From Phoronis australis (taxonomy: Eukaryota > Animalia > Phoronida): a stretch of DNA of 56,513 nucleotides. The notes under the pieces were generated by a model. That model saw only the letters and a list, made by a program, of their open reading frames with translations, was not told the origin of the DNA and made no database searches. Made by a program: the position numbers and the translations under genes. The DNA lies in assembly GCA_002633005.1 (NCBI GenBank), contig NMRA01000051.1, positions 363,968 through 420,480 of the forward strand, given 5' to 3'. Shown one piece after another: positions 8,400 to 49,624 of this stretch (positions within the stretch are counted from its first letter, which is position 1; the number at the start of each line of letters is the position of its first letter).

Positions 8400-10440
8400 T
8401 TATTGCTTGCCTACGACGAATCTCTAAAACACATGGGTTTCACCGAATTAGATATTCCGTTACAGCTGCGTAAATACAGTAAATATACTTTGATAAAATA
8501 TGAAATTTAAAGGAGTTCCTGAGAAGTCACGTCAAATTAAATTACTGATGTAAATCCTTTAAAAAGCGAACAATTTCATTTTGAGATCTCGGTCAGTTTA
8601 CACACTCTCCTATCTTCCGGCGTGCAGTTCTACAGTTGTGCCTTCGACAAGGTTTATGTTTCGTTTCGAAAACATGTAGGCGGTCGCAGACTTTATTTTT
8701 GAACCATTCCAGCTCAAACAATGTCAAACATCAGTGAGATTTTACTTTCTCAAAGTCAAGTGAGCAGATTTCAAGATTCCGATCACCCTGTTGCATTTCA
8801 CAGCGATTATGTTATGTCGTTGGGAAAGTGACAAAAGTTAGTTGACAAAAAACATTTGAAACAAGTTTTACTTAAAGAAATTCAAACTTGCCGTTTGAAT
8901 TAGATCTAAGAAACAGTGATTTCAACGATTACCGGGATGTTACAACATGCTATGACGAAGCCATCAGTAACTACGGGGTAATCTTCAAGATCTCCGTTAG
9001 TGAAAAATTGCAGTTGTTGCAATCTGGAGCCGAAGGGTACGTCGACATTTTAGATTTACCGATGAGACGGAGTTAAATTCATCAAGGGACGATTGAATGA
9101 GAAGGCCTTCTTTTTGACTGGACAGGTGTAATTGACAGTGAGTAACTAAACCGTGAACAACGAACGGTACAAGATCATAATAATTAATTAATCGCCTGAC
9201 TGCTTTCTATCTGACTGGAGGACTTGGATTTTAAACCCCGCTCACAAAAAGAGGTATTTAAACACACTCTTGTATTCTACCTAATTTGTTTGAAAATTGT
9301 TTTTTCACCTGTGCACAGGTGTACAATCATCTCTAGGCTAATCAGCTATTTCTTGACTGGCAGTAGAACAATTTCTCAATTAATTGAAATAGTCCACACC
9401 ATTTACCCTGAATTTCTGAAAGGCAACAATGTCAGGTTCGTCTTTCAATGTTTGACGTTGTACTCCAAAACTTATTAGTTAAATTATAATCTTTTGGCTG
9501 CCCATAAACTATAGTTCACAACACTCCTCCTGTTCAGTTTACATTTTCGATCATTTAATCGGAAAACTCTTAATTTTAAGCAGAGGTGGTATTGATTGTA
9601 AGTTTTTGTCATGCTTTAAATTATGTTTTGCAAGCTCTACGATTAGCATAACGTTTTTTTATGAAACGGAAAATAAGGAGTGTTTCGCGTGCGCATTGGC
9701 AATCAATTTCCCCCTTTCGTCGCCAATATTCCGACCACCGATTCCCTTCCCGAGGCAAGCGAACACGATCGGGCTTACGTACTTTTGCCAAAAGATTCCC
9801 CTCAGTTTAGGTCTTGTAGTACTTGGCGTGCGTGCTTGTACCTTCGCGGTGAGGCACGGCACTTAGTGCTGGCTGCGGGAGATCCAACGTATTTTCATAA
9901 TTTCAACTTGCATCTACATGTACATGTACATTAAACAGAAGGTGTCATATGCAGAGGAACAGTTTAAATTGCTGACAATACATGGTAAAATCTGTATAAA
10001 GAGGACCAAAACGAGCATCAAATACAATCAAACAACAAAACGGCGATTTTACGTTTATGTGGTAATGTCGTACTCCGGCAACCGGAAATAAATATAGAAT
10101 TTTGCCAGTGTTTCTCGTACATGACACAAGACAAAATTTCAACATGGTTGTAATTACGTTAGTTAGGCGGCGGGTATTCGTTATTTTGTCTCCAATCAAT
10201 CGTAATTTGAATTTCACAAGTCCCTAATTTGTAGCGGTATTGTTTCATCGTGTTGACACTTTCGCGTAAATTGTTGCGGACAAATAAAACAACAATAATA
10301 ATAAATATTTTAAGTTGTATTGGGAATTTCAGGTTCACAGCTCTACAAATAAATATTTGACAGAAGGAACCAGATGGGTTCCTTAATTACAAGAGATAAC
10401 ACACACATTTCCGATACCCAAAGTGTAATTGAGTATCGGA

Positions 10441-10630
10441 TACTAAGTGGCACAGGTTAGCATAGTACCAATTGGGTACATAATACCAAATGGGTATTGG
10501 CCGATTGCCTACCAAGTGGGTCGAGCAAAGCGGCAAATTCAATAACAACTACCAAGTGGGTACAAACTGCCAAATGGGCAAATATCATATAAAGTACCAA
10601 GTGGGTACACCAAACATCCAACTGGGCTAT
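10441..10630. repeat. Array of ~8 copies of TACCAANTGGGTA with variable spacers
   Basis: Copies: taccaattgggta, taccaaatgggta, taccaagtgggtc, taccaagtgggta, tgccaaatgggca, taccaagtgggta, atccaactgggct, plus a degenerate tactaagtggca. Confidence 0.7.
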
Positions 10631-12172
10631 AACAACCTGCAAAGCAGGTTCCGGACAAGCTGAGTGAGCAGACCAGCCGGAGTGATAAAAAGAGATATTG
10701 TAAGGAACGTGGTGTTGTGGCTCAGTATGTGCCGAGAGCTGTGACCGGGGTGGAGAGAAGCAAGCTGCAGTAATGGATGCTCAAGTACAGGTCTGGTCGC
10801 TAGCCAATGACGTCGGTTCTTGCCTGACGGTAACACGCTCCGGGCTTGAAGAAGGTACCAGCAGTGACTGTGAAAACAACAATAGCCAACAGCACATTTT
10901 GTTCGGCACAAGGAATGGAGCGTGGGAAAAGTAGAAAGCGGTTGACGTGAAATTTTATGATACCCCGGGTAGGGAGGGCGGGAGAGGTATAAACTTGTCT
11001 AATTAGGAAAATTAAGAGTGAATGTACTGTTGCTTCAAGCTGGGCCAACAGGAAGCTGGAGAGAAAGAACAAACAGTGCAACCATCGGACTTGGTAGAAA
11101 CTAACTAGGAGTTGGATATGAAGCATGAAGGGCTGTATTTGCCCAAATAATAGGATTTATGTCAGAGTGCCATAAATCTCACTATTCAAATTGTGAAAAA
11201 TTCGAGACGGGATTCAGACACATGTCGTGTCTAATTTGTAAGGATGGCTTAAGTGTGATTTATTGAAATACTTAAAGATTCGCAAGTCTTTGAAATAAGA
11301 AAACGTGCAACTGCAATGGAACATTTTGGAGACTTCTTGTGTAATTTGTCATAGCACTACTTTATTGTTTGTGCTGCGACTGCCGACGTTGGAGTTTTCA
11401 AATTTGTCTTGAAGCTATTATAATGATTCTCAGTTTCATTAAGTTACAATTGTTGCAAAGCCTCACTTTTCCTGTCGCAGAGAATGATTGAAAATCATGC
11501 GATTTTGGTTACTTTTACCAGTGACGGAATTGTTGCATGTGTCGGAAATCGGTTTCTGAGCCTTTCACATTAGTTCCAGATTGCCAGAAAGTGAGAATAA
11601 TGGGAGATAACTTTGAAATGGTTTATTGTTACTGTCGATCTTAGACAACAACTTATCAACCCCTATATGTTTATAGGAATTTACAAAACAGGCGCCTCAC
11701 TTTCCCAACATTCAATTCTGTTTCTGGTTTCTGTCAATCGACGGAGTTGCCCGAAGTAAACCGTACCATCACACTAGGCGCCGCTCGTGAATTGTGATGC
11801 CGAAGCCAATGGTGAACTTGTGTGCGAGCTACTAACCAGAAACAGTCGCAAGTTCCAAAATTTCATCATTCCACTTTTGCCTAACTTTCCCAAACATATC
11901 AATCCAGTATTGTTTCAAGTGTATATTGCTGGCACCCAGCATGACTTGTTTTTTCGTATTTTTGTCTCTCTGAGCTGTCTCAGCCCCGTGAAAAATTGGG
12001 GTCGGTCTAAGTGAGTAAAATTAATGAATTCGGAATGAATACGTGTGCACTGGGATTAGTACTGGAAACTGATAGCCTCCAATTATCCTTTTTCAAATGA
12101 TATTCGATTTAATTACTAGCCATAGAAATCCATGCTTATTTTCTGCTTTTCTTTTCTAGTTTTTGCACAACA

Positions 12173-12236
12173 ATGAAGTTTCTCATGGTCTTGTTGCTGA
12201 GCCTTCTGGCCGCTATTTCTGTTGTTCACAGCTTTG
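12173..12236 (+). CDS. Triple-knottin precursor exon 1 (signal peptide)
   Basis: Acceptor ttttctag ends at 12159. ATG at 12173, MKFLMVLLLSLLAAISVVHSF, donor G|GTAAGT in phase 1. Confidence 0.85.
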
Positions 12237-15200
12237 GTAAGTGATCCTCTACTGAGCAAGCGGGCTTCGTTATAAAATCGAACCAAAGTTGAATGTTCCC
12301 GTGGCGCTCTTGCACAGTCGTGTGCGACTTTGAATGTTTCCGTGAGGTTAAAAGTGTCGTTATAATCCTGAGGGTGATGTCTATTGGAATTTCAACGATG
12401 GGTTATAGCCCGCTTGTGGACTATCAGCACAAAAACAATTAGACGAGATTTGATCACCAGTGTCATATGAACCTTGACCTAAGGAGGGCCTACATAATTA
12501 TGAGTTAGCGATCGGCTTAATGTACAAGTCAAATTTCGAGGAGACATGCGTCCAATATTTAACATACATGTGGCTTTTAGGCAGCTTGATAAAATATACC
12601 CTAGCAGAAGCGCTACTTCTGGCAACTTAGGAGCTTTCTGTTACTTTGTAAATTGTCTAATGTATTTATGTAGGAATTCGACCCCTCGTTTTGAGAATCA
12701 TTGAAAGACGCAGTTCGACTTCAGCATGAGGAATACCATTTTCCTGTTTCAGTCGATGATGCTGTGAGCGAAGACGCAGTGGAGCGGGAGGTTTCAGAAG
12801 CACTGGACAACGAAGAAGGCGCGTCGAATATACGGAGTTTTTATTCTCAAAAATAATTGCATTATAAAAATATCTCAGAGTAAGGTTACCTTAATAAGCG
12901 TCATTTTTCGTAATTGCAAAAAGCCTTCCTTAACAAAAAATCCTAACATAGCTACAAATTAAATATAATTCTAAACCAATTGAGCTTTTAAACGTATTGG
13001 AAGTCGATACGTGAGCATCCCAGAAGCTCAGATCTGTGGAATTCATTTTCAAATTTGGAATGTAGAAAGTGTACGCAGGCGATCGTCTGCTCCTAAGCTG
13101 ACAATCGGATAGATTCTACATGTTTACTCTATCTCTGGTAAACTACGCATCTGACTGCTTAAAATACTACTAAAATATTATAGTGTTGTCTACAAATCGT
13201 ATATCTACATCAGCTAGCGGTGCTACTAGGGATTACCACTATTCTACAGTCCTTTATGAAAATGTCGTCTCTGGCTATACACTAAAACAGACTGGTTTTT
13301 CGGTTACAGATGATGATGTCCAGGAGGGCGACGACATTGGGGAAAGGGAGCTATCAGACATTGAAGCCAACGATGAAAGTAATACATGTGGATCAAAATC
13401 GATTAGTGCTAAGATTTTACGTATTTCTATACTCAAGCTTACAAATGCAGGTCCAATTTAAAGGGGCATTACATGTTAAAACAGATTAAATTGAATTATT
13501 CAAAGTGGTTTTCCAAAACAGAAGTCAAACTGTTCACCAGATATTTTCATGGTTTGTTCTTAAAGATTTTGAATATGTGTTGATGTCAAAGCATTTTTCG
13601 TTTACTTTCAAATTAAAAAAAAAAACGATCTGTCATTGCTCGTCGCTTTGGCGATTTTCTAACACACGGAAAAGGACCTCTCCTTGTTTGGTATGGCAAG
13701 ATGTAAACGTATTACATTGCACTTATATGGAAAACGTAAACTTTGATCACTGATTTAAACAAAACAATGGCGATATCATGCAGCAACCAGGCCGACTTCT
13801 TTGAGCTCCTACACTGCATAAGCATACATATTACTAGAGACGAAGAATTTAAGAGAGTATAAAACCCAACAGGTAGAGTCTATACCACAAATCACGGATT
13901 TTTTGAGACTTGGCACATGATTTTGGTTGGGTGAGATGTAGAAAAATTCTCTTTTTAAGAATTTTATCCATTATTACTCTTTTTATGACATAATGAATAA
14001 TTTAATGGCAAAATTTTCAAAATTCCTTTTTTAAATTTATATGTTTTGATTTTGAGTTTCAAAAACGGTTATTTTGCAGGTTTTCGCAGAAGCCATTTTA
14101 GGTCAACTTTGATGCTGACCTTATAATAATTCGTTTAGTAGTACTAACCTCTTCATAATCTGAAATAAAAAATCTCGACTCTCCCGTTGTTTTTGCTCAC
14201 GAATCATTGCAAGAACTACCCTTCGTCCTATTTGCCTGTACTCAGTTGCCTCAAACACAAACAGGGGGCGTCTTGATCACGTAAAAATTTTGTATTTATA
14301 GGTAACAGCACTACTAATTACCATTCTCTCAAAACCACGATGATGATAATTGCTTATTATAAAAAAATTATGTACATAAATTGTGACTTGCCTCCGTGCT
14401 TCGCCTAAGTGATGGATAGCATACCGGTAGCTGTTTTTTTACATGAAGACTTTGGATCCGACTACCAGCCGAAACTGGCATTGCCGTGTTCTTTCCTTTA
14501 GTTGCGAGAGCCGCTGGCATAGGAAGGGATGCACCTAAGGGGATTATGGCCCTTTCTTCAGTGCAAAAAAAACTTCGACTTATAATAATTTTGCAGTTAT
14601 ATTAAAATATCCGCACCCGTCGCCGGCCACCCCAACGTTGAATATTTCTGATAGTGCGATCATTAACGGTTTGAAAAGGTCAAGAGAAAGAATTCACGAA
14701 AGACAATTGTATTAATGAATCAGTTCACGACAGTCATTAGGTAAACATAGTTCAACACAACGGTCTGGACATCATAGCAAACTTACAGACTGACTCACCC
14801 TGGTGCCGATCAAAGGGGTCAGATGCCGCCAGCACCTGCCGAGGGGATGGGAATGCTAATCAGCTGTCGTCCAAGGGGAGTGGGGGGCACCACTGAGACA
14901 TCAGTTAAGTGGGGGTTACACAGCTATCAACACGGGATTGTGGGGGGCTCAGCAGGTGCTCCCTATACACGCCACTGGACTGACTACTGCAATTTCACCT
15001 GCCGTGTCAACTGACTCGCTGGACAAAGGTCATCCAGTTCAGTTTTGATCCTGGTCGCGCAATACATTCAAAAACACCTCGTTTTCATTTGAAAGACCTT
15101 AGACTTGACTTTTATTACAAATTAAAGCAGATTTCGTGTTCATAATTCCGTTCAATTTGTCTGTAAACTATGCTCATCATTTCTAAAATCGGCAGTTTTG

Positions 15201-18200
15201 CAAGATAAATTTCATTGAATGTAAAGTTGAGGCAAGATATTGTTTGGGCATTCCTTAACATCTATTCTATAACTGTATGTTCAAAACGTTACATAAAGCC
15301 ACAAGTTGCAATAAGTAAGAAGGTCACAAAAACGACCACTAGTATGAGCTAGGAAACGTGCTCTGGGGATTATCTCTCCTGTATAGCACAAAGCCGTCAA
15401 ATTTGAGTAAATGTCAAATAATTATTTACAGTCCACATAGGTTATTCCAGCCCCCAAAGTACAACTTTCAATCTATTTTGTAAGTTACTTATTTTTGTTG
15501 CTAAATACTTACAACTTTGGAAACGGCTAATTAGACTAATTGCAGTGGTGAAATTAAGGGTTATTGAGTGCACAAAATGTGGCATTCAAATTTTCATTAG
15601 ATACCCATCCATGTTGTTTTGAATTTTGACGTATAGACTTGTTTTTGAAAATCTACTGGTTTTTATATAAACTGCTTCCAAGAAACTGTTTAGGGATGAA
15701 AGATTTTTTATTGCTCCTGTGCTTCAAAAATAGTGAATCTTCAGATTTTTCTAGAAATTCTTACAAGATACAAAGTGAATAACTCTCACGTTAGCATCCC
15801 CCAAAAGTAGATTCGCCACCATCTGTTTAAAAGGCATTTTTATTAATTTTCGCGTTCCATGCTTTAAGCAGTGATTGCGACAATAGCTGATAGAAGCACA
15901 TGTTAACAGTACGTGCAAGTTCTGCGGTCTCAATCTCTTTGAAAATTTGCCCAACGCTCCCCAATTATTATCATATCAAAAACAAATGTTTATGCAGATT
16001 AATACATTTTACTTTTGTCTGTGGTTGTTTTATAATTTACTTAAAGATTGCTTGCTTAAGAGGTATATTAAACTTTCTCCAGAATTTTTTCACTATTCTC
16101 AGGTAGAGAATCTTAATTTTATTTGGATTATGTCCAAGCTGTTGTACAAAATATGCCAAATTAGTTTAGAAACAAAAACAGTGCCTTCCCGTCATCTTCT
16201 AGTTCCTCTTAAATGGTAGAAAATATTGTTATACTTATTAACAAGCTCGATTGGATAGGAAACTTCTATGAATTGCGTCCTTTATAAAATTGCAATTGTA
16301 AATTCTACTGGACCCTACGTAGCTGGGCAGATAAGTGCAAATATGCACCAGAATTGTGCAAATGATGATACAAGCACCAAATTTTCCATGATGACTCATA
16401 ATAGCATACTTAAGAGATCTGTCCGACTAGCCACCTGAAAATCTAAGATGGCGGCCATTTTTCAAGATGGCTGCCGTCCAGTGTTCTTGATAATGATTTT
16501 CCTTGTAAATCAGTATCTACCCAACCGATTTTAGTGATCTTGGGGTCAAATGTTATAGTTTTGGGTATGCCTAATTCATTTTGGACACTGTGAACACTCT
16601 GAATTACATATATTGTCAGGATATAGACAATCATACACTTTAATTCGGTCAATTTATATGATTTTTGTCTGGGCGAATGCTTTGGTCATGCTGCATTTGT
16701 CTTGTATCAATAGCTGATTATATATTATGCATGGGGTGTGCAGGTGTACGATATCATATACAATTGAACTACACTGTATTGTAATAAAATTTCCACATTT
16801 GTGGATTGCAGTGTCGGATGACGAAGAAGCTGAAATGGTGGCGCGCAAAGTGGAAGAAGGTGACTCTGCAATAGCGGATACAGGGGAGGCTTTTGACGGG
16901 TAAGAGCGCCTAACGGCGTTGCTTAAAGTGATTGGCACAATCGGAGAGAGCAGTGTTTTTAGATCAGTCTCAAGATGGCCTCAACTCATGATCGCAGCTG
17001 TCACAGTCCGACGTTTTGCTAAGTAGTGCATGCATATTTAATTGATAAAACCATGGGCTTCAATTTTAACGAATGATTGTCTACTAACAGAATCGTGGAT
17101 TGTTATAAAATCACAGAAACCTCACAAATTTTGTTGTTATAAACATGTAGCTATTGTCAAAGCTTGACAACTTCATCCACCGATCGACCCTAAACCGTTT
17201 GTGTCTATGTAAAAGTGATAAATAAATTTAGTCTGGCGTGTGTGTAAATTCAGTTTACAATAATCGTAGTCTTATCAAAACGAAAAGAAAATTTAGGCAA
17301 GACGTCGGTTACATTTTGTTTCCGTCTTGTCATTTTCTTTTTCATCTAGTTGATTGTATAGCCATTGTCCAGTTACACTCTTTCACAGTGCTAGGAAAGG
17401 TAGCCCTGTGGTTTTTTGGATAACATGGCTTCTCATTGGTTAAAGTAATGAACCGGCGTCATAGCATTCAGTCATTCCCATTGGTTGAAATCTGGGAAAC
17501 CCCTTTCAGTATACTGTTACGTATTATGGCGACCACCTTTGACTTCAATACTATAGTTGCAATTTATGAAAATGGACAGTGACCGATTTAAACAAAATTA
17601 AGAAAACCCCGATCCAGTGGCTTAAGCCCAAACAAGTACTGGTGCATGAGGTGGCGATGTGATCGCTGAACTTCCGACCAAGCATGCGTATTGATTCCCA
17701 CACATGGAATTCCGTGTGTCGATCATCACGCTTACAGGGCTACTTTTCAGTATAGGTGGCGCTGTGTGAGAGGGTAGTGTCCAGTAATCTGTTTACATTT
17801 CAGATCCTCTGGTTGATGATATTATTTTTTTATTAGAACAACCCCAGAAACCGCTTTCTTACAATATCAAAGTTCTCATTCACTGCCTTACATACATTTA
17901 CTACTAAGCGTATTATTCATCATCTTCAAATCGGCTGACATGATTTTCAAAAGTTTTAACACGTTTTATCGATCGTATGATAACAACTTTTGATTTTGAT
18001 CACCTGCCGCCCGTAAATTAAAGTCAAATAATTCCTTAGTCAAATTCGAAGTGATTTCAGGCTCGATATTGCTTGGGATCAGACCTACAATCTAGTCTGT
18101 CGCGGCGTGTCTTTGTACGCCGAACGTGGTAAGGAGCCGTCATGTCTTTGCAATCCTAGAAATGACTTCTCAAATTAAGGAACAAGTTGAGGCTAGTTGT

Positions 18201-20412
18201 ATAGGGGTAGATGATCTAAATCAATCAAAATTTTACTTCTGTGGACGATGGAAAGCTGGCTACGTAACGGTAGCAGGCTTGGAGGAGGTCCATTTCAATG
18301 TAGAAGTGACTTTGAACAGAAACGCGTAAACCTACAACTGACGGCCTTGTATTCTGGACACAAATGTCACTTGCGTGGCTTCGTTTCAAAAGCAAAATTT
18401 TGTAGGCTACTGTACACTCAGCCGAATCGTAAACTTGAAGAGTCTTTCGGACTATTAGAATCATACGGATATTAAAGGGAGGGCCACTACCCCCAACCCA
18501 GTTCGGGTTCGACCAATAAGCCATAAAACGCCGTCGGTGCTGTTTTTTAGCGCTTACGCGTACATTTTCCATGGAAATTGTAGTTGTGCCCGCCCTTAGA
18601 TTCATCAGTGAGCCCAGCATACCTAGAAGCAAAAGGTGAAAGTATACCGTTCCTTGTGTACTAAAACTATACATTAGCCGTGTATATTTTGAACTATACA
18701 AAGACTTTGTCAACTCGGACTTTCTCACCGGTCCTCGTAGATCTTCAGCCAATTATTTGGGATTTCATCAGCCATCAACCGACCTTCGATATTTAATCGA
18801 CTCGCTGAGGTGTTTCATAGGCCATTGGGGCCTTGACATCGCCCTCTTGAAGGGCACATGGGCGCGATTTTGTTAGCATATTAAAAAGTTTTGAAATGGA
18901 GATACATTATGTATGTGTGCGGTGGTAAGATAGTGGTTTGTTTTGTCTGTCACTAGTGTAGAAGAAACGCCCAACCTTGAGCTAGGTAAAAGGCTTTGGA
19001 GTTCATGCAGCAAGACAACATGGTGAGTTTAAAGACTCTTACCTTCGTTTGTAATGTATTTGAACTTTCTATTCATTTGTTATGCCTTAAAACTGCGTGC
19101 ACACCCGTCTGACCGATTCACAGAGGTGCATGCTAACTGCCGAGATTTTTGTTAGCTAATGTCTTCAAATGCTTCTCATTAAAAAGAGTGCATTGATATC
19201 TTTTGGACACGGAGCAATAGAGTACCACACGCAGACGATGCCGAATGGGCATGTGACAGTATCATTCAAAACTGCATTCCCTTCAGATTGCATCCAAAAA
19301 AAAAACAAAATCAAATTGAACTACTTAACGTAGCCTGGAACTCGAAAACTCATATAAATACCATTAAAAAGACGTTGTCGAATCTACTTTTGGGGATGCT
19401 AACGTGAGAGTCATTTACTTTGAGTATTGCAAGAATTTCTAGAAAATTTCCTCAAATTCGCTGTTTTTGAAGCACAGACGAAATATGAAGTCTTTCATCC
19501 CTATACAATGTTCAAATTCTACGTCTCTAATAATATATGTGAGCATTTAACGTTGTTTAGTTTATAAATGTACCAAAGGACAAAAATCACATTTTCTACT
19601 TAAGGGAAATGTTGTACATACATGTCTTTGCATACCAAATAAGGAGACGTACATGTACCAAGCAAGATGCATAAAGCTAAGCTGCTATCGGTTGGTATGG
19701 ATGTTTATTAGGTCTTAGTTTTGAAGTTGCAAGACCTGAGATTGGCGAATAAGACATTTAAAAGTCAAATTGAACCGAATTTTGTGTACGTTGTACATCG
19801 AAATGAACCATGGTCCTTGATTCGGTTACAAGAGATCCCTGCGCTTGCATTTTCTAAGAATAATCACGGATAATTTTAATTGGTGTCCCGGGTAGGCTAA
19901 AAGATTTGACATATTGGCAGTCAAATATCAGTGACTTGTTCGAGGAAATTATCAAAACTTTGTGAAAACATAACAAATGATCCAGTTTCAATTTCAAGCA
20001 ATTCAAAACCAATCAAAGATGGTAAAAACGAGAATTCCACAACCTTAACATTCAACCGCTAGGGGTAGTGCACATCAGTCCTACGTTTGCTCTGATATAG
20101 CAACTTGTAAGCTGCGTGTTCGTAATGAGTACGTTATTTTCTTATTTATTTAGTGTCTGGAGAAGATGCTGCAGCGGCAGGTATTGCAGTAATGTGAAGT
20201 GGTGCAGAAAATGCGGAAGACGCAACGATAAGTGCGGCGTGCTTGGACTCTTTAAACGATGCTGCCCGGGTCTGTACTGCAGAGGTCTAGTCAAGAAATG
20301 TCAACGCTGCCGGAAGAGAGGAGAGCGGTGCGGGGGCCATTCGTTGGGTCTGCGCCCACCCTGCTGTAGAGGCCTAAGATGCAAGGGCTTCTTTAAACGG
20401 AGATGCAAATAA
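12173..20412 (+). CDS. Secreted prepro triple-ICK (knottin) cationic toxin/antimicrobial peptide precursor, 203 aa, 6 coding exons
   Basis: Exons 12173-12236, 12753-12818, 13310-13378, 16812-16899, 18957-19022, 20154-20412 total 612 nt with compatible intron phases 1,1,1,2,2. Protein: MKFLMVLLLSLLAAISVVHSF-VDDAVSEDAVEREVSEALDNEE-DDDVQEGDDIGERELSDIEANDE-MSDDEEAEMVARKVEEGDSAIADTGEAFDG-VEETPNLELGKR/LWSSCSKTTCVWRRCCSGRYCSNVKWCRKCGRRNDKCGVLGLFKRCCPGLYCRGLVKKCQRCRKRGERCGGHSLGLRPPCCRGLRCKGFFKRRCK*. Three C-C-CC-C-C modules. Confidence 0.85.
12753..12818 (+). CDS. Triple-knottin precursor exon 2 (acidic propiece, probable GC donor)
   Basis: Acceptor ttttcctgtttcag, then VDDAVSEDAVEREVSEALDNEE, donor AAG|GCGCGT (non-canonical GC). 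Confidence 0.65.
13310..13378 (+). CDS. Triple-knottin precursor exon 3 (acidic propiece)
   Basis: Acceptor ttttcggttacag, DDDVQEGDDIGERELSDIEANDE, donor A|GTAATA; 69 nt, phase 1-1. Confidence 0.75.
16812..16899 (+). CDS. Triple-knottin precursor exon 4 (acidic propiece)
   Basis: Acceptor gattgcag, MSDDEEAEMVARKVEEGDSAIADTGEAFDG, donor GG|GTAAGA in phase 2. Confidence 0.75.
18957..19022 (+). CDS. Triple-knottin precursor exon 5 (GKR cleavage site and first two Cys)
   Basis: Acceptor ttttgtctgtcactag, VEETPNLELGKRLWSSCSKTTC, donor TG|GTGAGT in phase 2. It supplies exactly the two Cys missing from knot 1. Confidence 0.8.
20154..20412 (+). CDS. Triple-knottin precursor exon 6 (Cys/Arg/Lys-rich mature region)
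   Basis: Acceptor ttcttatttatttag, 85 codons with 16 Cys, then TAA. Confidence 0.9.
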
Positions 20413-20531
20413 ACATTTCCGTTTCGGTGTTCCTGGGTTAAAAGGAGTTTGTTCTACCTGACTCGAGCAAATAAGATATTTGTTTAACCTAGTCACGAAA
20501 CCAATAATCATGTAAAATTTATTGCGCCCAC

Positions 20532-20537
20532 AATAAA
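20532..20537 (+). terminator. Candidate polyadenylation signal of the knottin gene
   Basis: AATAAA ~120 nt after the stop, followed by a GT-rich tract (tgttgtgttg). Confidence 0.55.
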
Positions 20538-23500
20538 AACTAACAAAAATGTCTAATGTTGTGTTGAGTATTAAAACAGTAAATTACGTGAAAACATCTT
20601 TAAATCCCACAAAAGTATTAGATTATTGAGATACAAAGTTAGTCGCAGTTGCAACACAGCTCACGAATAGATCTGACCGCGGCCGGCAACGATTCCGCGA
20701 TCGGTCGTAGCCAACTACGTCCGGACAATTACCGTCCTGCATGGCGTCGTTAGGTCGGTCCCCACTACAGTCTTCACTTGGATTTGAATTCCTAACAAGT
20801 AGCAAATCACCACCGCATGAGAGCATTTTCTTTTAACATTTGCGCATGCAGTGAAGCAATGTTTTATTACTACAGTAAATGAAAAAGAAAACATTGGATG
20901 TGGCACGACAACAGATAGTTTACGAGACTGTAATCGGCCGTGTGGTCTTCTGCCAGTCCGTTAAAAAGTAAAAAACCAGTCGGCTACTGTTCGACCGGGC
21001 GACAACTGGTCGCCGTCTTGTTTCCGACCAGTCGGAGGAAAATTCATGATCTGTGATGTACATGTATATAGTTCCATGCAAACCAAATACCACGCGTTCG
21101 CAGTGAAGTGACCTGGTGCAAGAATGCCGGTGGGAAACCGTCTGAATACCTGGTCATTCTACAACGTGCACTGATTAAAATCATTATATAAACCTAATGA
21201 TGAGAAGAGTTTTAAAAATAGATCGTGAATCGAATGAATGAAGTTCAATCTGTGGGAGCTCCAAATAATTTTCTAATGCTATCTTCATCTCGTTTGAGAG
21301 CAGTGATCTACCTGTAAACAGGTGGCCCAGTTGATGAAGTCATTTACTAGAAATCGTCAGCGAAGTAATGATCATCCCTCGGACTTCCTAATTTATGCAA
21401 TGAGATGATGGTACCTGTGGAAGCGGTTAAAACACAACAATGGTGTACGTTTACAATTTTAGCGTTCGCTAATTAGGCAACACCACTCCCGCGTTTAACA
21501 AAGTTTGTGTACAAGAGGGGCTGCTACCAAATTACTCCGGTTTCAAGAGAGGAGAGTCTCTTGGAACCAGGGGATGGGTTCTCTTTTTGTGACGCTTGTG
21601 AAGAGTTGTGTTTTCGTGCTGCAGAACACTCGACGTTTGCAAGTCTGTGCGAGTGTGTTTCCCTCAGGTTCGACTGGACCTTTTTCAGAGTCCTCATTCA
21701 ACCTCATTTGCACCCTGACAATCACAAAATGATTAATGATTACTATAATATCAATGTTATAAAGAGTAACCTCATCATCATGAACCAGTGATTATAGATT
21801 TCCATTTTCACATCCGGCAACATGAATTTGCTTATTGACACTTGGTTGCTTCAAATTTTACATCTGCCTTCACTGAACTAACACAAGAAGCGTACATACT
21901 TATTGACAACATTTAGATCAACCATCTCTAAAATATTTGACAACTCTCAATTCAACAAAACGTTTAAAATTGGAGGAAGCGAGTTTCATACCTGAAATAC
22001 GTCATAGCAGTTTGGATTGACAGAATTGTACGATGTCGTACACTTGGCATTCCTCCATTTCCAACTCTTTATTTATGACACTTGGTAATTGGCCCATTAT
22101 GTTGCAGGTCCAGCAGAATTAATGATAGCAGAATACTGTCTGTGGACTGTGGTTGCTGTCCGATTTTCAAAATTCAAAATATCACCACGTGTACTTTTAA
22201 CGATTCAACGAAAAAAATTGTTTAAAAACTCTCAAAATGAAAATTTGAAATACATTATTTTTGCCTGGTGACGTTTGACTGACAGAACATTGGAGGTGCC
22301 ACTAAATGAAGTTTACATGTACGTATACTTTGTTAACCAACCATGAGACTGCAGGTTATTGTAAAACGAACGCGCTAATTTGGAAATTATATGGTACGTA
22401 AGCTCTCTTTGCTGTACTTACAGGTCATGTTCCGACATTGAAAGGTTATTTTCGTGAGATTACCTTCTTATTAATAAAGTTACTGAATCTTCCAGTAGAA
22501 TGTTTAAAAACACATAAATTAATAACGTGAATCAGTCACAAGGGCAATTAAGTGATACGGCTTGAGTGCATGGGTTTGTTGGAGCATAACCACACCTAAT
22601 TTGTTTGGTGATAACCCATGTTTCATTGTACACTTTGGGTTTTTTGTGTGACGAGAAAACAGCGGGATTAGCACTAGTAGGAGGTTAACTTTTGTGTTAT
22701 TTAGAAGTGTAACCAGGTGGTCATCTTAGAATTGTCACGTGGTGGTTATCAGAGTCGATGAATTGTTAAAACCAGAGGGCAGGTTCTTGCCTAATCTGAC
22801 GATGAAAAATATCCGTCTCGGAATAAATCTTGCATATGACCTGGCAATCGTAATGAATATTCATCTAAGATCTTGGTAGTTATGGGGGAAGATGTAAATA
22901 AATACGACATTGTCACAAGGGCAAATGCACAGCAGTAATCTAAGCTCGATCGAAAATCAACGCAAATCTTGCATTCCAGCCTGCTTCAAAATGAACTCGT
23001 CTGCCAGGTTTCATGCCAATCCTCTGCGCGCTTTGGCAGAGAGGCCGTTCACAAAAAGGACACTAAATCCGTCCAAAATAGCTATCTAATATCCTCTCCA
23101 TGAAAATCCTCCAAGAAATTGTTAGATACAGAGAGGGCGCGAGAAATCGATATGGCCACCAGGAGGCACCGTGCAACTTGGCCCAGCTACGAACAGTTGT
23201 GTGCGCCGTTCTCTCCAAAATAAAAAAATGTGCGCAAAATTTCACGAAGATCCATCCAAGGCATTGGAAGACAGAATGCTCGGCTCTGCTCATGGTCGCC
23301 ACCGAATCATAAGTAGACGACCCCCAGCCATGCTGTATTAACGTTTTTGCGATAAGGGTAAGGTTTCATAGCAGGAGAAATAAAATCACTATTGACTATA
23401 GTTGCTACTTCCCCGAAATCCACTGCGTATATTCTAAATCTGTTTTGATAGGAAATTTTGGAACTGGAAATCATGCAAATGGTTTCATAGTTAAAAGCAG

Positions 23501-23782
23501 AGGTTTTAATGGAAATCAGAATTCAAAAATCCTGCTTTAAAATTGCTTCTCTTTATCAGCGACCTACTTTTGCTATGTGCAATAAATAATATGACCTTTA
23601 TCCGTCAAAGGAAGTTGTTTGTGTACATTGTAAACTGAATAGAGGGCTGGTGAGGCAAACGGATTTTGTTCATGTATTGTTATCTGGTGTCGCACAATTG
23701 TCTACCATTTGCCACAAAAAGAACTGACGGGGTCATCTACGTCTCGCTTAGTCAAAGCTAAATTGGTATACACATCGTTAGA

Positions 23783-24535
23783 ATGTTGGTAGCAATGTTC
23801 GCAAGTATTCTTTCGGCAACAGTACTGGGTACGGTTTGGTATTCATCTGCTGCAATGGGTAGACTATGGGCCGTTAACGCCTTTCCAGGGAAACGATACG
23901 AGGACATCGAAAAGAAAGGATCTTTTATGGCATACCTGTTCACAATCGCAGCAAACGCACTGTTGTCGATTTTGGCGAGCTACTTTCTCAGGTATAAAAA
24001 GGTCAATTCACAGATGGAATTAGTTCTCTAATTAACTTAGAGCAGCAAGGACAACATTTAATGTTCAAATTATGTTTATTGATAAGTGCACGCTACTTTC
24101 CAAGGTGGTCTGGCTCAATTCTTAATAAACGCATGTTCCACACTGCTATTTGTTCGTTGTCTTCCTCCTGGAATCACTCAGACTACATGGCTGCCAATGA
24201 AACTGAAGTTATGAGAACTACTAGACCTTCTTCATACATATGGTAGACCTAGAAATGCCCATGAATGTTAACCCTAGTTAGTCACACCTCAAATCCATTG
24301 TTTAATCTATCTGAGGTCGTGCTGAGCAGCTTTTTGTATTTTTTGTAGACTACTGGGCGTCCAAAGTGCTACTGGGGCCATGCAGGGAGCTTGTTTGTTG
24401 GCGATAGCGTCTAGTTTGACCCAGATCAGTCACTACGCGTTCGAGGAGAAAACCTTCGCCCATTACGCAATTAACATCGGGTTTGATGCAGCGGTAGTAT
24501 TCGTTGTCACCATGATAACGTACACATTATCTTGA
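23783..24535 (+). CDS. DUF1761-like small multi-pass membrane protein, copy A (131 aa, exons 23783-23991 + 24349-24535)
   Basis: MLVAMFASILSATVLGTVWYSSAAMGRLWAVNAFPG...YFLR|LLGVQSATGAMQGACLLAIASSLTQISHYAFEEKTFAHYAINIGFDAAVVFVVTMITYTLS*. LGxxWYS..(F/M)G..W and HY.FE...INxG(F/Y) motifs are typical of DUF1761. Phase-2 GT-AG intron; in-frame stop upstream of the ATG. Confidence 0.8.
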
Positions 24536-27500: not shown

Positions 27501-28508
27501 AACCTAGCTCAGCATAGGGACATTCTCTGTGAAGAAAGTAATTTTTCAGAAATTTCAGTTAGCGTCAGTATCGAACCCACTAACTCAGTATGTCTGTTGT
27601 ATGTCACAATCCATGATTTACGCACTCTTTCCGCAGCATGGAACTTTGCACCTACATATACAAAACGACATACCGCAGTGCATCTGCAGTTTCACCGCTG
27701 GTGAGGAAAACCAATGCCGTCGCATTTCCATCGCAGCTGTAGGTGTTCCCGGAACTATAGAAATAACACATTATATAGTGAGGCCGGCATTTTGAGTTAG
27801 TTTTGATGACACAACAGTGTAAATCCAGAGCAACTTTCTTGGGGAAGCGGCTCCCGGCTACTAAGTTTACCCGTCACACGAGAACATAACTTCGAAGTGA
27901 TGGTCTTAGCGATTTTGTCCAAGAAATGATCAAAGATAGTAGTGAAGAATTGCACCTGCTTGTTGGTGCTACGTATACTTTACCTTTTTCATGTTCTGGA
28001 GTTCAGAGCCACTGAGCTAATTATGGTATACATCATGATAATAACACAAGACAAACCAATCTAACGAGGCTAACTTGTCATTCTTTATTTTATGTTGATT
28101 AATTTCATTTGTCTGTGTGTGTGCTAAATAGGTGAAAAATTGCGGTACAACTACTAAAATTACGAGTTGCGAATAAATATTGCTGTTTAATAGCTATATT
28201 TTGCTGCTATCGTTGTCCCATTTTCACCGGCACACACTACCTCTCTCACCTCTCGCCAATCTCTGACCTGACCTGGTGGACAGAGGTCAGTTCATGAAAC
28301 AATGACAACGTCATGCGCGCTGCCATCGCCACGCCGTAAAGAAAATAATGACAAGTTTGTGGCATCTAGAGTTACGAGGTCACACGGATCGAGCAGGCCT
28401 GGACTGGCATAGTCAAGGTGTTTAGATTTAAAGTAGGCCGACAATGCACTATTAAAGCAGAAAATCCCCGACATTTCACAGGATCTACATGTTCATCGGT
28501 ACCTCAAC

Positions 28509-29609
28509 ATGCTACTGGCGATTGTAGTTAGCATTTTAGGCACGAGTCTACTAGGAACAGCATGGTATTCAGGGGCATTCGGTAGCGTTTGGGCCCGCGA
28601 CGCTTTCCCAGGAAGACGGTATGAGGATTTGGGAAAGAAATCAGCTCACTTTGAATATGCATTGGCAACAATTGCACATGGCTTGCTGTCGGTGGTGTCC
28701 ACGTACGTCATCAGGTAGGTTCCTCCGGGTGTCACAGTTCCGTTGGTGACTGCTGCAATACATGTAGATCAAAACGAACTTGACAACAACGGCTGTAGGC
28801 TACCTTTCAAAAGCCTTCTCGGGAGGATTCTGACGGCGAGTCACGATAAAAATGCAACAACAGACGTAAAATTAATCATGTTCAATGAAATCATGAAATT
28901 TCTGGAAAAATACAAAGTCCTTAGTGGTGAGATGGGGACACGTATGTTTGTTATAAAAGTAGACTTTAATTGGCTGTCTTGTACACTTCCAACTGATGAA
29001 AATCTGCGGTCAGTGCTTGAGAACTACCTAATAACAACTATAGCGCCTCAGTTTTCGGCTGGCTTGTGCAAATTAAAACGTATATTTTAAGCATATGTTT
29101 TAGTGATATTCCGTCACTTTTTGTACAAATTGCTTGATGAGGTGGCAAACTAACAACTGAGGCAAAGTGGACTAAAAACTTGTCTCCGGTATCCCAGCAA
29201 GATTTAGGCGTTTCAGATTAAGCTCGTCGTTGAATTGTCGGACGTACTGAGGCGTATCGTTTTGAAAAAAAAAAATAACGCACTGGTATATGCTACGCTT
29301 TTAAACCTTTCTGAAACTTCCCGGTGTAGCTAATCTATACTCTCTAGCTAGACTGTCAATCTCTGTCATTTTTTAGAGTTCCCTGGCATGTAATGTGATA
29401 GGTGTTGTAATTGCCATTACAGATTACTAGGCGTCCACGACCTTTATGGCCTCCTGCAAGTAGCAGCTGTGATGATCACCGTCGCCAGTTTGACAAAGAT
29501 CAGTCACTACGCCTTTGAGGAGAAAACTGCCACCCATTACGTCATTAACGCCGGATTTGATGCCATGGCTATTCTTATTGTAACCTTCTCGAGTTATTTC
29601 TTTTCGTAA
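28509..29609 (+). CDS. DUF1761-like small multi-pass membrane protein, copy B (130 aa, exons 28509-28714 + 29423-29609)
   Basis: MLLAIVVSILGTSLLGTAWYSGAFGSVWARDAFPG...YVIR|LLGVHDLYGLLQVAAVMITVASLTKISHYAFEEKTATHYVINAGFDAMAILIVTFSSYFFS*. Paralog of copy A with the same intron position and a 187-nt second exon. Confidence 0.8.
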
Positions 29610-29727
29610 AGAACACAATGGAAAACAAAGGCTCCGAGAAAATTATTTGGTTTTCTTAACAGTGACTTTCGTAGGTATTAAACTTTGTGCTGCCACATGA
29701 ATCTGGTCTTTGCTGAATTGACTTGAT

Positions 29728-29785: not shown

Positions 29786-30097
29786 ATATGCTTTTTCAAA
29801 TTTTGCTTCAAGCCCAGAGTGTAAACTGTAACTGTTATTTTTGCCGTTAAAAATCTGTCAACTAGCTCATTGCCATATCTTTCTCATCCATTCCACATAG
29901 GCCTGCCTACTCTTACATCTTTTGTCGATCAACTTATGACCTTATGACCTATGTTCAATTTAGGAACATTTCCCAAACGATAGATTTACTCCCTTTTGAT
30001 GTTAACCGCTTCAAAGTCGACTCGCATCTTTCGTGGACTCGGTTATTAAAATGCTTATTCCACAACCAATCAACACTTTCCGTGAAATACAACATTA

Positions 30098-30601
30098 CGG
30101 CGTTTTCCCGTTGCTCCCATCTTGTTCGATTCTACAGCCCAACAACAAGTTGGGAAGATCTCCCCCGTAACCAATATCTTACACGACTGATTAACTCCAC
30201 CCTGGTATTTATGGTGTAGGCCGGCTCTCTTTTGTTCGATAATTGCTGCAATCTCCGATCAGATCGTATAAGCCTCACTGGACTTTGCTGCTAAAAATGA
30301 AAGTTAAGTTGGTGATTCAAAAACTAATCATGGCCAGCATTCGACAAGGAATTCAGAAAATCAATGCTATTGGTTTATGTTCAAATATGTTATAACTTAA
30401 CTTTCATTTTAGCAGCACAGCACAGTTAGGCTAGATACGATCTGATCGGAGATTAGAGTAATTGTCGAACAACTGGCCTTCCAAACATAAATGCCACAAT
30501 GGAGTTAATTAGTCGTGTAAGATATTGGCTACATGGGTGATCTTCCCAACTTGTTGTTAAGCTATAGAATCGAACAAGTTGGGAGTAACGGGAAAACGCC
30601 G
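30098..30601. mobile_element. MITE/foldback element with ~210-bp inverted arms
   Basis: 30098-30310 is an imperfect reverse complement of 30394-30601 (CGGCGTTTTCCCG...CGGGAAAACGCCG). A partial copy lies at ~53670-53893. Confidence 0.8.
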
Positions 30602-31466
30602 CAAGTGCAGATTCCGGTATATAAGATCTTTTATTTTTCGAGAATAGCTCACCAAGGGCGGAGGGGAGGTGGGCCTAAGTGTCGAGGTGACAAGAAACTC
30701 GTTAAATTTCTGCTTCAATATCTTTCTTGGCAGTTTCAAGTGAGGCACTCCTGAAAACAAACCCCCCATTTAGCCTTGTATTCAATCGCTCTATTTTGAC
30801 CGGAGAAATAAAGAATGTTATAAATTGGCACAGAATGCATTAATAAGTTTCGACAAGTTTATGGCGGATTCCGAAACTGATGATTTTACAAACCGCTTGC
30901 CTCCTGAAATTGAATTCCCCCTAAACATGCTACACTTTTAACCAGATAAGGAAGAAAGGGAAAAAGGGGTTTGAGTTTTTGTTCCTTGTAGCTGTGACTC
31001 TTCATTTGAACCGCGGTAGATAATTGGTCTGATAGTCGTGATGCGGACCAAAGAGCAAGGGCATGTTAACAACGGCCCCCTGGGCACGCTTCGATTTGGA
31101 AACCGTGTGTAGAGTTGAAACTAAAAGCAAGGTTTTGTAATGTACCACGGCCACAGTCGCTTTCTTCGAGTCCACTCTCATAAAGAACAGGAATCATTTT
31201 CCAAGTGCACACCGTCAAAAATCGTCGAGTATTTAACGCGGGGAGAAGGTGCCAGAAATAGTCGCACGGGAGTGAAGTCTGCGTTCACAACTTTTAATAA
31301 TTGTCAAGATCCAAAATTAAACCACGAAGTTTCGAGATTCATTTATTTAACAGGTCAGTCGTGTCGTAATACAATAAAATAAATACACCATGTTCAACTC
31401 CTTAACAGCCTCACAGTACAGCAGTGGCTTGCTTTCATTGAATTCAGTGCAACAACGGGCATGTTC

Positions 31467-47898: not shown

Positions 47899-48281
47899 CT
47901 CCCGCGTTTTTAGAAGAACGAGCACGGATATGTGGTACACTCATGGTGTGATTTTTTTGTCCTATGCCATTTACTTAGATGGGATTTGATTATGCTAAAC
48001 CTTCCTAAGTACAGTGAGCCACAGGTGTCACTTGGTTGTTTGCTTGGCTGACTGAAGACATTGTCTTGTACATGGCTTCGGCCTTGATCTTTCTCTTGGT
48101 CCAACCTGTTTCAGTGTCAAGTATTCGGATGTTGTTCCACTGGATATTGTGTTGAGCTTCGAACACACGTGTTCTGCTACTCAGAGGTATTACCCTCTCT
48201 ACGGCACCTCTTATGTTCCGCAGCAATTCTCGTCTCCAGTGTTTTTAATGTTTCACCGATATATGATTCACCACATTCATG

Positions 48282-48884
48282 ACATTTGTGGACATGAAGA
48301 AAGCTTTTGACTGGACAAACCATGAACTTCTGTTTTATAAATTACAGCAAAATAATATTAATGGTAAAATGTATGATGCAATTCGTATGATTTACAGAAG
48401 TCCATTGAACTGTAAACGATTAAATGGCACTCTGTATAGTGGTTGGTTCACTCCTGAAAATGGTGTCTGTCAGGGTGACGTACTACCACCGACACTTTTT
48501 ACATTGTATATAAATGACTTAGCTCTGAGAATGAAAATGACATGCAAGATATGTTGAAGGTTTTAAACAACTGGTGTAAAAAGTGGAGAATGGCTGTGAA
48601 CATGGCAAAGATTTGGTTGTCCATTTTCGAGCTAAGTCTAGAAGAAGCAATTTCGAATTTATTTTGAAAAGTATCATTAGTAATAAACCCTCATACAAAT
48701 ATTTAGGCTGTATTCTGGATCAACACCTTGACTTCAAAGAAAATTCGAATGCTTTATATGAAACTTGGGGTAGAGCGTTAGGGAAGATATGCTCAACACT
48801 CCGTGATAGCAAGAATCTAGGATTCGAAATGTTAAAAAAATTATTTAATTCGTGTGTGACACCGATTTTGGATTACGGGTCATC
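48282..48884 (+). mobile_element. Internal fragment of an AP-endonuclease-type LINE reverse transcriptase inside the Penelope element
   Basis: FVDMKKAFD...GVCQGDVLPPTLFTLYINDL...YKYLGCILD...PILDYGS, frameshifted, opposite strand to the PLE. Confidence 0.85.
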
Positions 48885-49624
48885 TGTTGTTTGTCTCTTC
48901 TTCCATTGCGAATCTAATTGTAGGTGGTATGCTGTTCAGGCGGTCAAGGAACTCTGATGGATTTTCTTTGAGTCTTGGCTGAATATTGTGAATGTGTCAT
49001 CAACGTATCGTTTCCACATCTTCGAGGGTCTGTTAGCTGATCTGAGATTGGTTTGTTCGAGCCACTCCATGTACAAGTTAAAACTGGTGATAGTGGTGAA
49101 CCCATTGCCATTCCTTGTGTCTGTTCGTAGAACTTGTCTTTGTATTGGAAGTAGGTGGCATTGACACAGAATGTCACTAATTCCAGAATGGAGCCTATTG
49201 TGAGGTTTACATCCTCTGATGGCTTGTGGTCATGTTCTAATTTTGACCTGAGTAAGGGGAGAACCTCTGACGTTGGTACACTTGTGAATGGGCTTTCGAC
49301 ATCAAAGCTCACCATGATGTCCTTTGGTGTATATGTTGACTGATGACATTGACACGAAGTGCTTCGAGTCCTTTACGTAGGCCTAAGAGTCAGTTGGGGA
49401 TATGATGTTGTTGAGGAATCTATCTAGTTGGTGGCAGGGAGAACCAATCTTTCTTATAATTGGTCTCATTGGTGTCGTGACAGTGTAAATAGACAAGAGT
49501 TCGGTGTAATTAGACCAAGAAATTTTAATAGTAGTTGTTCCTTCATTTTTTTATAAGTGAAGTGCGAGTGAAGACAATTCAGTTAATGCATCCCGAACGG
49601 TATTAGGGCAGTGCCAACGTGTCC

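Follow-up and report, generated by a model that had tools for sequence, protein, structure and literature searches.

A transcribed six-exon gene of Phoronis australis encodes a precursor with a polycationic end of three predicted cystine-knot-type modules

We found that a gene with six coding exons is transcribed and spliced within a 56,513-nt stretch of Phoronis australis DNA (56.5 kb, hereafter the window). Its precursor ends in a strongly basic 95-aa region with three six-Cys modules, and we give an even chance to the reading that this region is a polycationic three-knot peptide, released by a convertase and acting in host defence.

All features of the gene lie on the plus strand. The coding exons join, with intron phases 1, 1, 1, 2 and 2, into a CDS of 612 nt for a 203-aa precursor. 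Exon 1 (12173..12236, 64 nt) encodes a signal-peptide-like segment, exons 2 (12753..12818, 66 nt) and 3 (13310..13378, 69 nt) carry repeats A and B of an acidic pro-region (net −9 and −10), and exon 4 (16812..16899, 88 nt) adds further acidic pro-region (net −9). The end of the pro-region, an L-G-K-R sequence and the start of the mature part are found in exon 5 (18957..19022, 66 nt), and exon 6 (20154..20412, 259 nt) bears the rest of module 1 together with modules 2 and 3. The initial annotation had proposed six exons spliced in phase and had named RNA-seq mapping as a check. We confirmed the structure with RNA run X2, in which all five junctions were spanned, by 4, 5, 5, 4 and 8 reads with 4, 4, 3, 2 and 6 start places for junctions 1 to 5, in a sample of 11.3 million records (about 19% of the run). 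Every junction read was a first mate aligned to the minus strand, as expected of plus-strand RNA in most stranded libraries. Four of the five junctions, including those after exons 2, 4 and 5, also occur within a single 691-nt contig of X4. Intron 2 (12819..13309) is a 491-nt skip in both X2 and X4; its reads were aligned as 12816>13308, with two letters fitting on either side, and so read the intron is GC..AG, with a GC donor after exon 2. Expression was low and sample-dependent, being detected in X2 only among three raw-read runs from one study; runs X1 and X3 spanned 0/5 junctions.

The stop codon and 3′ UTR extend over 20410..20539, with AATAAA at 20532-20537 and the end of the X4 contig at 20539. 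Exon 6 of this contig shows four coding differences from the window (three replacements and one silent change, none at a Cys), which are too few to allow an inference of positive selection. Just 5′ of the ATG, a pyrimidine tract followed by AG forms a candidate splice acceptor (12140..12159), with 18 of 20 letters being pyrimidines as against 12-16 in the five confirmed acceptors. This strong acceptor, 13 nt 5′ of the ATG, suggests a further upstream exon; no junction to such an exon was present among the junctions listed.

The spliced CDS yielded the prepro layout that had been claimed from the genomic sequence: a signal-like N-terminus, an acidic region, the LGKR site and the 95-aa mature part, in this order. 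The exon 1 peptide has a basic N-end and a hydrophobic core (1.6-3.1 in 9-aa Kyte-Doolittle windows), and small residues at −3/−1 near aa 20 of the precursor point to signal cleavage at about this position. The precursor is presumably secreted. A convertase would be expected to cut at the KR of LGKR, in which GKR corresponds to aa 106-108 (nt 18985-18993). The pro-region comprises 84 aa over four exons with a net charge of about −31. Recounting the mature part gave the same 28 K/R vs 2 D/E as originally stated, a net charge of +26, and the part encoded by exon 6 has a pI of 10.35. The pro-region would neutralise the mature part and likely mask the 95-residue polycation until the predicted cut at LGKR. 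This charge balance favours a defence role, although it is not fully discriminating because acidic pro-regions occur in toxin precursors too. Neutralisation of cationic marine antimicrobial peptides (AMPs) by anionic propeptides is described in PMC10608444. Exons 2 and 3 are both phase 1-1, and their likeness was reached by 31/5000 protein shuffles and 1/3000 codon shuffles; exon 3 is likely a duplicate of exon 2.

The mature part contains 18 Cys, 17 in whole codons and one in the codon split between exons 5 and 6, with spacings of 4,4,0,4,5 / 2 / 6,8,0,4,6 / 2 / 6,10,0,4,7, exactly as claimed initially. With the register set by the first and last mature Cys, a six-Cys C-C-CC-C-C framework is present in 3/3 modules, separated by linkers of 2 aa each. 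Module 1 (C-x4-C-x4-CC-x4-C-x5-C) has its Cys I in exon 5 (19006-19008) and the rest at 20154..20205, a phase-2 intron falling at Cys II. Module 2 (C-x6-C-x8-CC-x4-C-x6-C) and module 3 (C-x6-C-x10-CC-x4-C-x7-C) occupy 20212..20301 and 20308..20406, respectively. Exon 6 holds both of the two matches to a strict ICK-type (inhibitor cystine knot) pattern in the six frames of the window. We rejected as chance a CC-x4-C-x8-C pattern at 48130-48177, which adjoins a reverse-transcriptase remnant. Identity between modules 2 and 3 is 47%, one of 5000 Cys-fixed shuffles reached their similarity score, and the sequence comparison establishes them as internal duplicates.

The ICK framework that had been assigned to all modules was upheld in its Cys spacing for all three and, at the level of predicted structure, for module 3, and much less firmly for module 2. 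The model of module 3 (pLDDT 79) predicts an ICK-like fold; its match scores were weak, the top VIA match having a Z of 3.8, with every row at Z <5 and Foldseek E values >= 0.76. By what we take to be their families, 33/44 of the VIA rows are ICK peptides, mostly toxins. Tachystatin A, an antimicrobial ICK peptide of the horseshoe crab, aligned over all 36 residues of the module 3 model and shared the top place (Z 3.2, rmsd 2.2). From its single sequence, exon 6 was modelled poorly (pLDDT 52), with non-significant Foldseek rows, and the sole VIA match of module 2 within this model, the ICK toxin GxTX-1E (Z 2.3), weakly suggests an ICK-like fold.

Dickkopf, Bv8, colipase, IGFBP and cellulose-binding modules also appeared among the fold rows of module 3, illustrating that the knottin fold is multi-purpose. 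The product may serve structure, adhesion or signalling instead of defence, whether as a matrix component that binds polyanions, as a binder of proteases or carbohydrates, or as a precursor of hormone type whose pro-region also releases an acidic peptide amidated at GKR. Amidation is usually signalled by G-K-R, and the pro-region is long and built from duplicated exons. We nevertheless consider such a role improbable, as the lack of known relatives, the matching charge of the pro-region and the resemblance to tachystatin suit defence better, and conserved signalling peptides should have findable homologues, though database coverage is poor.

Homology searches at the protein level used the 85-aa exon 6 frame alone, so that their blanks apply to exon 6. 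Screening 21 longer and 4 near-length candidates with this frame gave no homologue at E<=1, NCBIfam gave no family, and a metagenome scan returned 598 pattern matches of which none was confirmed; no animal homologue emerged from the protein searches with exon 6. The frame of a neighbouring DUF1761 exon, taken as a control, was equally blank (0 matches among 2 candidates), and the blank searches therefore say little on novelty; the databases probably lack the host lineage. Searching 1.84 billion representatives with phmmer gave one match, P0002, a JGI/IMG hypothetical protein of 167 aa (E 2.5e-4, 41% identity) with tandem CC-containing six-Cys repeats and 2-residue linkers in the same register. 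P0002 is a singleton without an acidic pro-region or strong positive charge, and the likeness probably reflects Cys-driven convergence. Its N-terminus resembles a bacterial twin-arginine leader, which an NCBIfam search did not confirm. Bacterial transfer was rejected: only the Cys repeats are alike, and in layout this is an ordinary prepro gene rich in introns. Within the window, tblastn found no paralogue and Rfam gave 0 matches. The GC content is ~39% and the commonest 8-mer is TACATGTA, which is present in several marine invertebrate phyla and is non-discriminating. Our literature search, which covered the main texts of mostly open-access papers, gave no account of this peptide, and a 9-residue motif occurred in 0 papers.

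Among PDB sequences, module 3 had a sole match, tachystatin A (1cix, E 4.1e-4), with 15/32 columns identical, 10 of these non-Cys. The best Pfam match was likewise Tachystatin_A (PF11406; E 0.036, 14.6 bits, under the gathering cut-off of 25). The module 3 match does not stem from Cys alone, because module 2, which has the same framework, had no PDB sequence match at E<=10. Both module 3 and tachystatin A are cationic, but tachystatin A is a single knot of 44 aa to which modules 1 and 2 have no match, and the likeness may have arisen by convergence. Tachystatins are chitin-binding, broad-spectrum AMPs (PMC8984021, PMC10608444). In the defence reading, the released polycation, with three stacked predicted cystine knots on one chain, would act like tachystatins by attaching to LPS, to anionic lipid or to walls that contain chitin, leading to growth inhibition or membrane damage of the microbe or parasite. 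Having three knots would raise both the charge density and the avidity, the target being a repetitive surface and not a single receptor. Against this stands the mussel peptide sCRP-I H1, the closest analogue in architecture to have been tested, which was inactive against bacteria up to 32 uM but showed cytotoxicity as well as toxicity in Galleria larvae (PMC10138031).

Also counting against defence, most fold matches of module 3 are spider and cone-snail ion-channel toxins, although with weak scores, DkTx and Xt3a occur among the Foldseek rows, and the ESM Atlas pointed, as leads only, to theraphotoxin clusters scoring 0.79-0.80. The peptide could be a mucus or venom toxin whose knots remain linked and engage an ion channel multivalently in predators, prey or parasites, in the manner of the bivalent DkTx, Hi1a and Xt3a, with the basic surface helping it to partition into membranes or enter cells. 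Avidity is increased in tandem ICK toxins (PMC9950431); the Leu-x-basic-basic site suits the preference of Tex31, a conotoxin-processing enzyme (PMC5864730); and unclassified ICK peptides occur in nemertean mucus (PMC10674772, PMC11768458). Yet toxins among PDB sequences gave 0 matches at E<=10 for queries from exon 6, and Pfam Toxin_7 reached only E 0.28. The 2-aa linkers are shorter than those of 4, 6 and 12 aa given for the three characterised bivalent toxins (PMC9950431). The host has no known venom, and low RNA with no local gene array in the window is, as a weak indication, not what a toxin array or a dominant transcript of a venom would lead one to expect. Use in venom and trivalent avidity, both suggested initially, are at present hypothetical; the only solved-structure sequence match is antimicrobial, and RNA is low or absent across runs. 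We regard a toxin as a somewhat unlikely alternative.

The gene shares with DkTx, Hi1a/Hc1a, Xt3a and U1-Pm2a tandem ICK-type modules formed by intra-exon duplication and a signal plus pro-region; the PDB and Pfam searches found no sequence similarity to these toxins. U1-Pm2a, a putative triple-ICK toxin from a tarantula reported in 2026 (PMC13172734), has three domains, as here. Genes of the Hc1a family have three exons with the entire mature peptide in the last, whereas module 1 here is split by an intron. For the double-knot toxins, venom-gland origin and channel targets have been demonstrated, while the present gene is known from its sequence and RNA reads.

The closest architecture that we encountered is that of the Mytilus multi-CRP-I (mCRP-I) precursors, with a signal, an acidic pro-region and KR followed by 2-5 modules with 2-4-residue linkers (PMC4558851, PMC10138031). 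Common to both are the signal, acidic pro-region, dibasic site, tandem C-C-CC-C-C modules with short linkers, predicted knottins, cationic character, a phase-1 intron after the signal exon and intra-exon repeat duplication. However, the pro-region of 84 aa over four exons compares with ~15 aa in CRP-I. CRP-I genes have four exons with all Cys arrays in the last, whereas the present gene has six coding exons and an intron inside module 1. Module 1 (4,4,4,5) fits the CRP-I array consensus C(X3-6)C(X1-7)CC(X3-4)C(X3-5)C (PMC4558851), but modules 2 (6,8,4,6) and 3 (6,10,4,7) fall outside it. The exon 6 part is far more basic than mCRP-I (pI 7.2-8.8), and there is one copy in the window as against a large cluster for CRP-I. 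CRP-I is reported from Mytilus only. The sequence seems to represent an independent family, one of extreme charge. The multi-knot architecture itself is not new, mussel mCRP-I and tarantula U1-Pm2a preceding it, and any suggestion that three knots lack a precedent is not supported.

As proposed for multi-MgCRP-I, the mature part might be a polyprotein from which, after its release, cleavage between the modules yields three peptides of one knot each. Basic residues are present in both linkers (2/2 and 1/2), and cleavage between modules 2-4 residues apart has been proposed (PMC4558851). On the other hand, 2-residue linkers flanked by disulfide-bonded Cys would be poor protease sites, the second linker has no dibasic pair, and mCRP-I has been predicted to remain an intact 'pearl necklace' (PMC10138031). 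Because the linkers sit between disulfide-bonded Cys, we infer that the mature part persists as one chain, and consider cleavage into single knots quite unlikely.

Natural multi-knot peptides are rare and are valued as stable, avid ligands, and the literature surveyed contained no three-knot peptide with functional characterisation. The gene described here is verified by RNA, is without a close relative in the searches made, and pairs knot duplication with duplication of acidic pro-region exons. A bolder proposal, which we hold to be unlikely, is that of a three-knot rod of independent evolutionary origin that stays uncleaved, has linkers as short as they can be and a net charge of +26, and acts as a truly trivalent ligand of a channel or a repetitive microbial surface; its pro-region would have lengthened by exon duplication in step with the charge gained as knots were duplicated. 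Given the paired duplications, tracking of mature charge by pro-region charge is directly testable. ORF-based annotation misses such peptides when, as here, the gene has short exons and a GC-AG intron. If the product is an ordinary cationic knottin AMP, it would still represent a new family, albeit a conceptually unsurprising one; if the bolder proposal is true, it would be the first triple-ICK peptide of demonstrated function, from a lineage beyond spiders, remipedes and mussels.

Concerning the structure of the peptide gene, six coding exons were recognized on the plus strand from sequence and splice phase (12173–12236, 12753–12818, 13310–13378, 16812–16899, 18957–19022 and 20154–20412). In a splice-phase test the introns were of phases 1, 1, 1, 2 and 2, intron 2 being GC-AG, and the 612-nt coding sequence specifies a precursor of 203 residues. 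Every number in the initial annotation held, including the six exons splicing in phase, the mature length, the charge counts and the Cys spacings.

The four RNA data sets X1–X4 were aligned to the window, and the raw reads of X2 and the contigs of X4 were aligned again over a wider stretch. In X2, of which 11.3 million records were read (~19% of the run), all five proposed junctions were spanned (4, 5, 5, 4 and 8 reads for junctions 1–5). The first mate lay on the minus strand in all of these reads, an orientation that indicates plus-strand RNA in most stranded libraries. A single 691-nt contig of X4, presumed to represent RNA, covered exons 2–6 at a depth of 112.5 and stopped at 20539, shortly after an AATAAA at 20532. 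Within exon 6 it differed from the window at four coding positions (three replacements and one silent), none at a Cys. None of the five junctions appeared in X1 or X3, which belong to one study together with X2. The peptide gene is real. At its 5′ end, a strong splice acceptor 13 nt upstream of the ATG suggests a further exon, and no junction from upstream into exon 1 was present among the RNA junctions listed. Upstream of the ATG the frame stays open over 20 codons or more, so the start codon is deduced from the signal-like segment that comes after it. Introns 3 and 5 carry an inverted pair of dispersed repeats (15687–15830 and 19364–19507), and in each of the four data sets numerous partial reads fell on another dispersed repeat, which lies in intron 4 (17374–17777), outside the mRNA.

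A unit of ~915 bp (10270–11186) lies 1 kb upstream of the ATG, with a depth of about 430-fold in X2 and 1400 in X4. First mates in X2 were on the plus strand, so the RNA is likely from the minus strand, and reads joined the end back to the start (26 in X2, 7 in X4), as would arise from circles or from head-to-tail copies at other sites. None of the four frames in it matched Pfam, and Rfam was blank; the unit is likely to be a repeat that is transcribed, or the end of a mobile element. Downstream are two tandem two-exon DUF1761-like genes (23762–24535 and 28437–29610, plus strand; Pfam E 3e-6, 9e-4 and 2e-5, under the cut-off), whose second exons have in common a 77-nt stretch, 83% identical. 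On the minus strand an RBR E3 ligase gene, presumably RNF144-like, is represented by IBR-domain exons (36075–36284 and 39777–40046; Pfam E 8e-12 and 0.005); together with the introns and the base composition, this neighbour suggests that the host is an invertebrate animal. Retroelement remnants at 43853–44182 (minus), 48267–48554 (plus) and 48947–49372 (minus) comprise a GIY-YIG frame, which may be Penelope-like, and a reverse-transcriptase frame, both from Pfam, and a reverse-transcriptase-like frame recognized by eye. MITE-like inverted repeats occur at 30095–30604 (119-nt arms, 87%) and 1758–2153 (nested arms of 75 and 52 nt).

The primary structure of the precursor was examined. Exon 1 is computed to be hydrophobic and reads as a predicted signal peptide. 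A GKR motif occupies residues 106–108 (split codons counted as X). The 84 residues preceding it contain 35 D/E and 4 K/R, the 95 following it 28 K/R, 2 D/E and 18 Cys (one codon is split by the exon 5/6 junction, the other 17 are whole), giving net charges of about −31 for the pro-region and +26 for the mature part. Cys spacings in the mature part are 4,4,0,4,5 / 2 / 6,8,0,4,6 / 2 / 6,10,0,4,7. Modules 2 and 3 share 47% identity, and their score was reached by only 1/5000 Cys-fixed shuffles (93/3000 codon shuffles at the DNA level). In its tail, module 1 is similar to module 2 (23/5000) but not to module 3 (1703/5000). Exons 2 and 3 are each of phase 1-1 and probably duplicates (similarity reached by 31/5000 protein and 1/3000 codon shuffles); no kinship of exon 4 to either was detectable. 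The similarities between modules 2 and 3 and between exons 2 and 3 indicate that the knots multiplied within exon 6 and that the acidic region lengthened through exon duplication; the two processes may have been coupled.

Relatives were searched for with the 85-aa frame of exon 6. Two word-index protein searches found none, 0/598 pattern matches were confirmed in a metagenome scan, no paralogue was present within the window, and the scores from the ESM Atlas, for theraphotoxin clusters and one Cys-rich cluster from bacteria, were at lead level only. A phmmer search of 1.84 billion representatives returned a single match, P0002, an unnamed 167-aa hypothetical JGI/IMG protein that has six-Cys repeats in tandem, placed in the same register. 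Its C-C-CC-C-C repeats, with 2-residue linkers, stand behind a Lys-rich spacer and what we take to be a twin-arginine-like leader; together with the Myxococcota cluster in the ESM Atlas, P0002 suggests that bacteria also produce tandem knot-like repeat proteins. As a control exon frame from the neighbouring DUF1761-like genes, one of which was tested, likewise found no homologue, the blank searches probably reflect poor database coverage of the lineage. Against PDB sequences, the sole meaningful match of exon 6 was tachystatin A (E 0.0023). Module 3 matched it at E 4.1e-4, with 15 of 32 columns identical, 10 of these non-Cys, and module 2 had no match at E≤10. In Pfam, Tachystatin_A scored 14.6 bits, under the cut-off of 25, and Toxin_7 E 0.28.

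The initial annotation had assigned the modules to the inhibitor cystine knot (ICK) framework. Modelled from its own sequence alone, exon 6 gave a poor result (pLDDT 52); the Foldseek matches to this model lacked significance, although the double-knot toxins Xt3a and DkTx ranked first, and VIA aligned it with a single structure, the ICK toxin GxTX-1E, across module 2 (Z 2.3, rmsd 2.6, 33 aligned). For module 3, an alignment of three rows yielded a model with pLDDT 79. Of its 56 Foldseek matches at E≤10, none passed E≤0.001; most were ICK peptides, but Dickkopf and Bv8 ranked high among them. In VIA, 44 structures matched at Z≥2, none of them at Z≥5, and 33 of these 44 were classed as ICK peptides. 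The best VIA match was agelenin (Z 3.8, rmsd 2.0), and tachystatin A gave Z 3.2 (rmsd 2.2, 36 aligned). As VIA scores in this range may mean no more than a common arrangement, the modelled fold of module 3 is consistent with ICK but not proven.

In the reading we favour, at roughly even confidence, the precursor would be secreted and the polycation kept masked by the acidic pro-region until freed through convertase cleavage after KR; the mature part, remaining one chain with its three knots stacked closely, would then bind to microbes or parasites at surfaces that are anionic or contain chitin. Cationic marine antimicrobial peptides are neutralized by short anionic propeptides, and tachystatins are broad-spectrum chitin-binding antimicrobial peptides (PMC8984021 and PMC10608444); the Phoronis peptide may act as tachystatins do. 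The evidence against a defence function is real: the fold neighbours are mostly toxins, and a single-module mussel CRP-I peptide was inactive against four bacteria up to 32 μM, while being cytotoxic and toxic to Galleria larvae (PMC10138031). That the peptide is a mucus or venom toxin binding ion channels multivalently is possible but less probable. In DkTx, Hi1a and Xt3a, with linkers of 12, 6 and 4 residues, the paired knots act bivalently (PMC9950431). That the mature part is cut into three single knots seems improbable, and a role outside defence equally so.

In build, the precursor has a counterpart in mussels. Mytilus multi-CRP-I precursors possess a signal peptide, a pro-region of ~15 residues, some of them acidic, then a KR site, and 2–4 C-C-CC-C-C modules, 2–4 residues apart, all in the last exon (PMC4558851); a later paper describes 2–5 modules with pI 7.2–8.8, predicted as knottins in a pearl-necklace arrangement (PMC10138031). 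A putative triple-ICK toxin, U1-Pm2a, was reported in 2026 from a tarantula venom transcriptome, its authors knowing of no earlier triple-domain ICK peptide (PMC13172734). The sections available of PMC6262176, PMC5864730, PMC10674772, PMC11768458, PMC5357004 and PMC4058007 contained no comparable three-knot peptide, and no description of the present peptide was found in the literature searched (mostly papers free of subscription). As the Phoronis gene fails the spacing and gene-structure tests for CRP-I and falls under the Pfam cut-off for tachystatins, we place it in neither family. It seems to represent an independent origin of an architecture that is rare but already known. What distinguishes it is its extreme charge and minimal linkers, together with a long pro-region with duplicated exons and an intron that interrupts the first knot.
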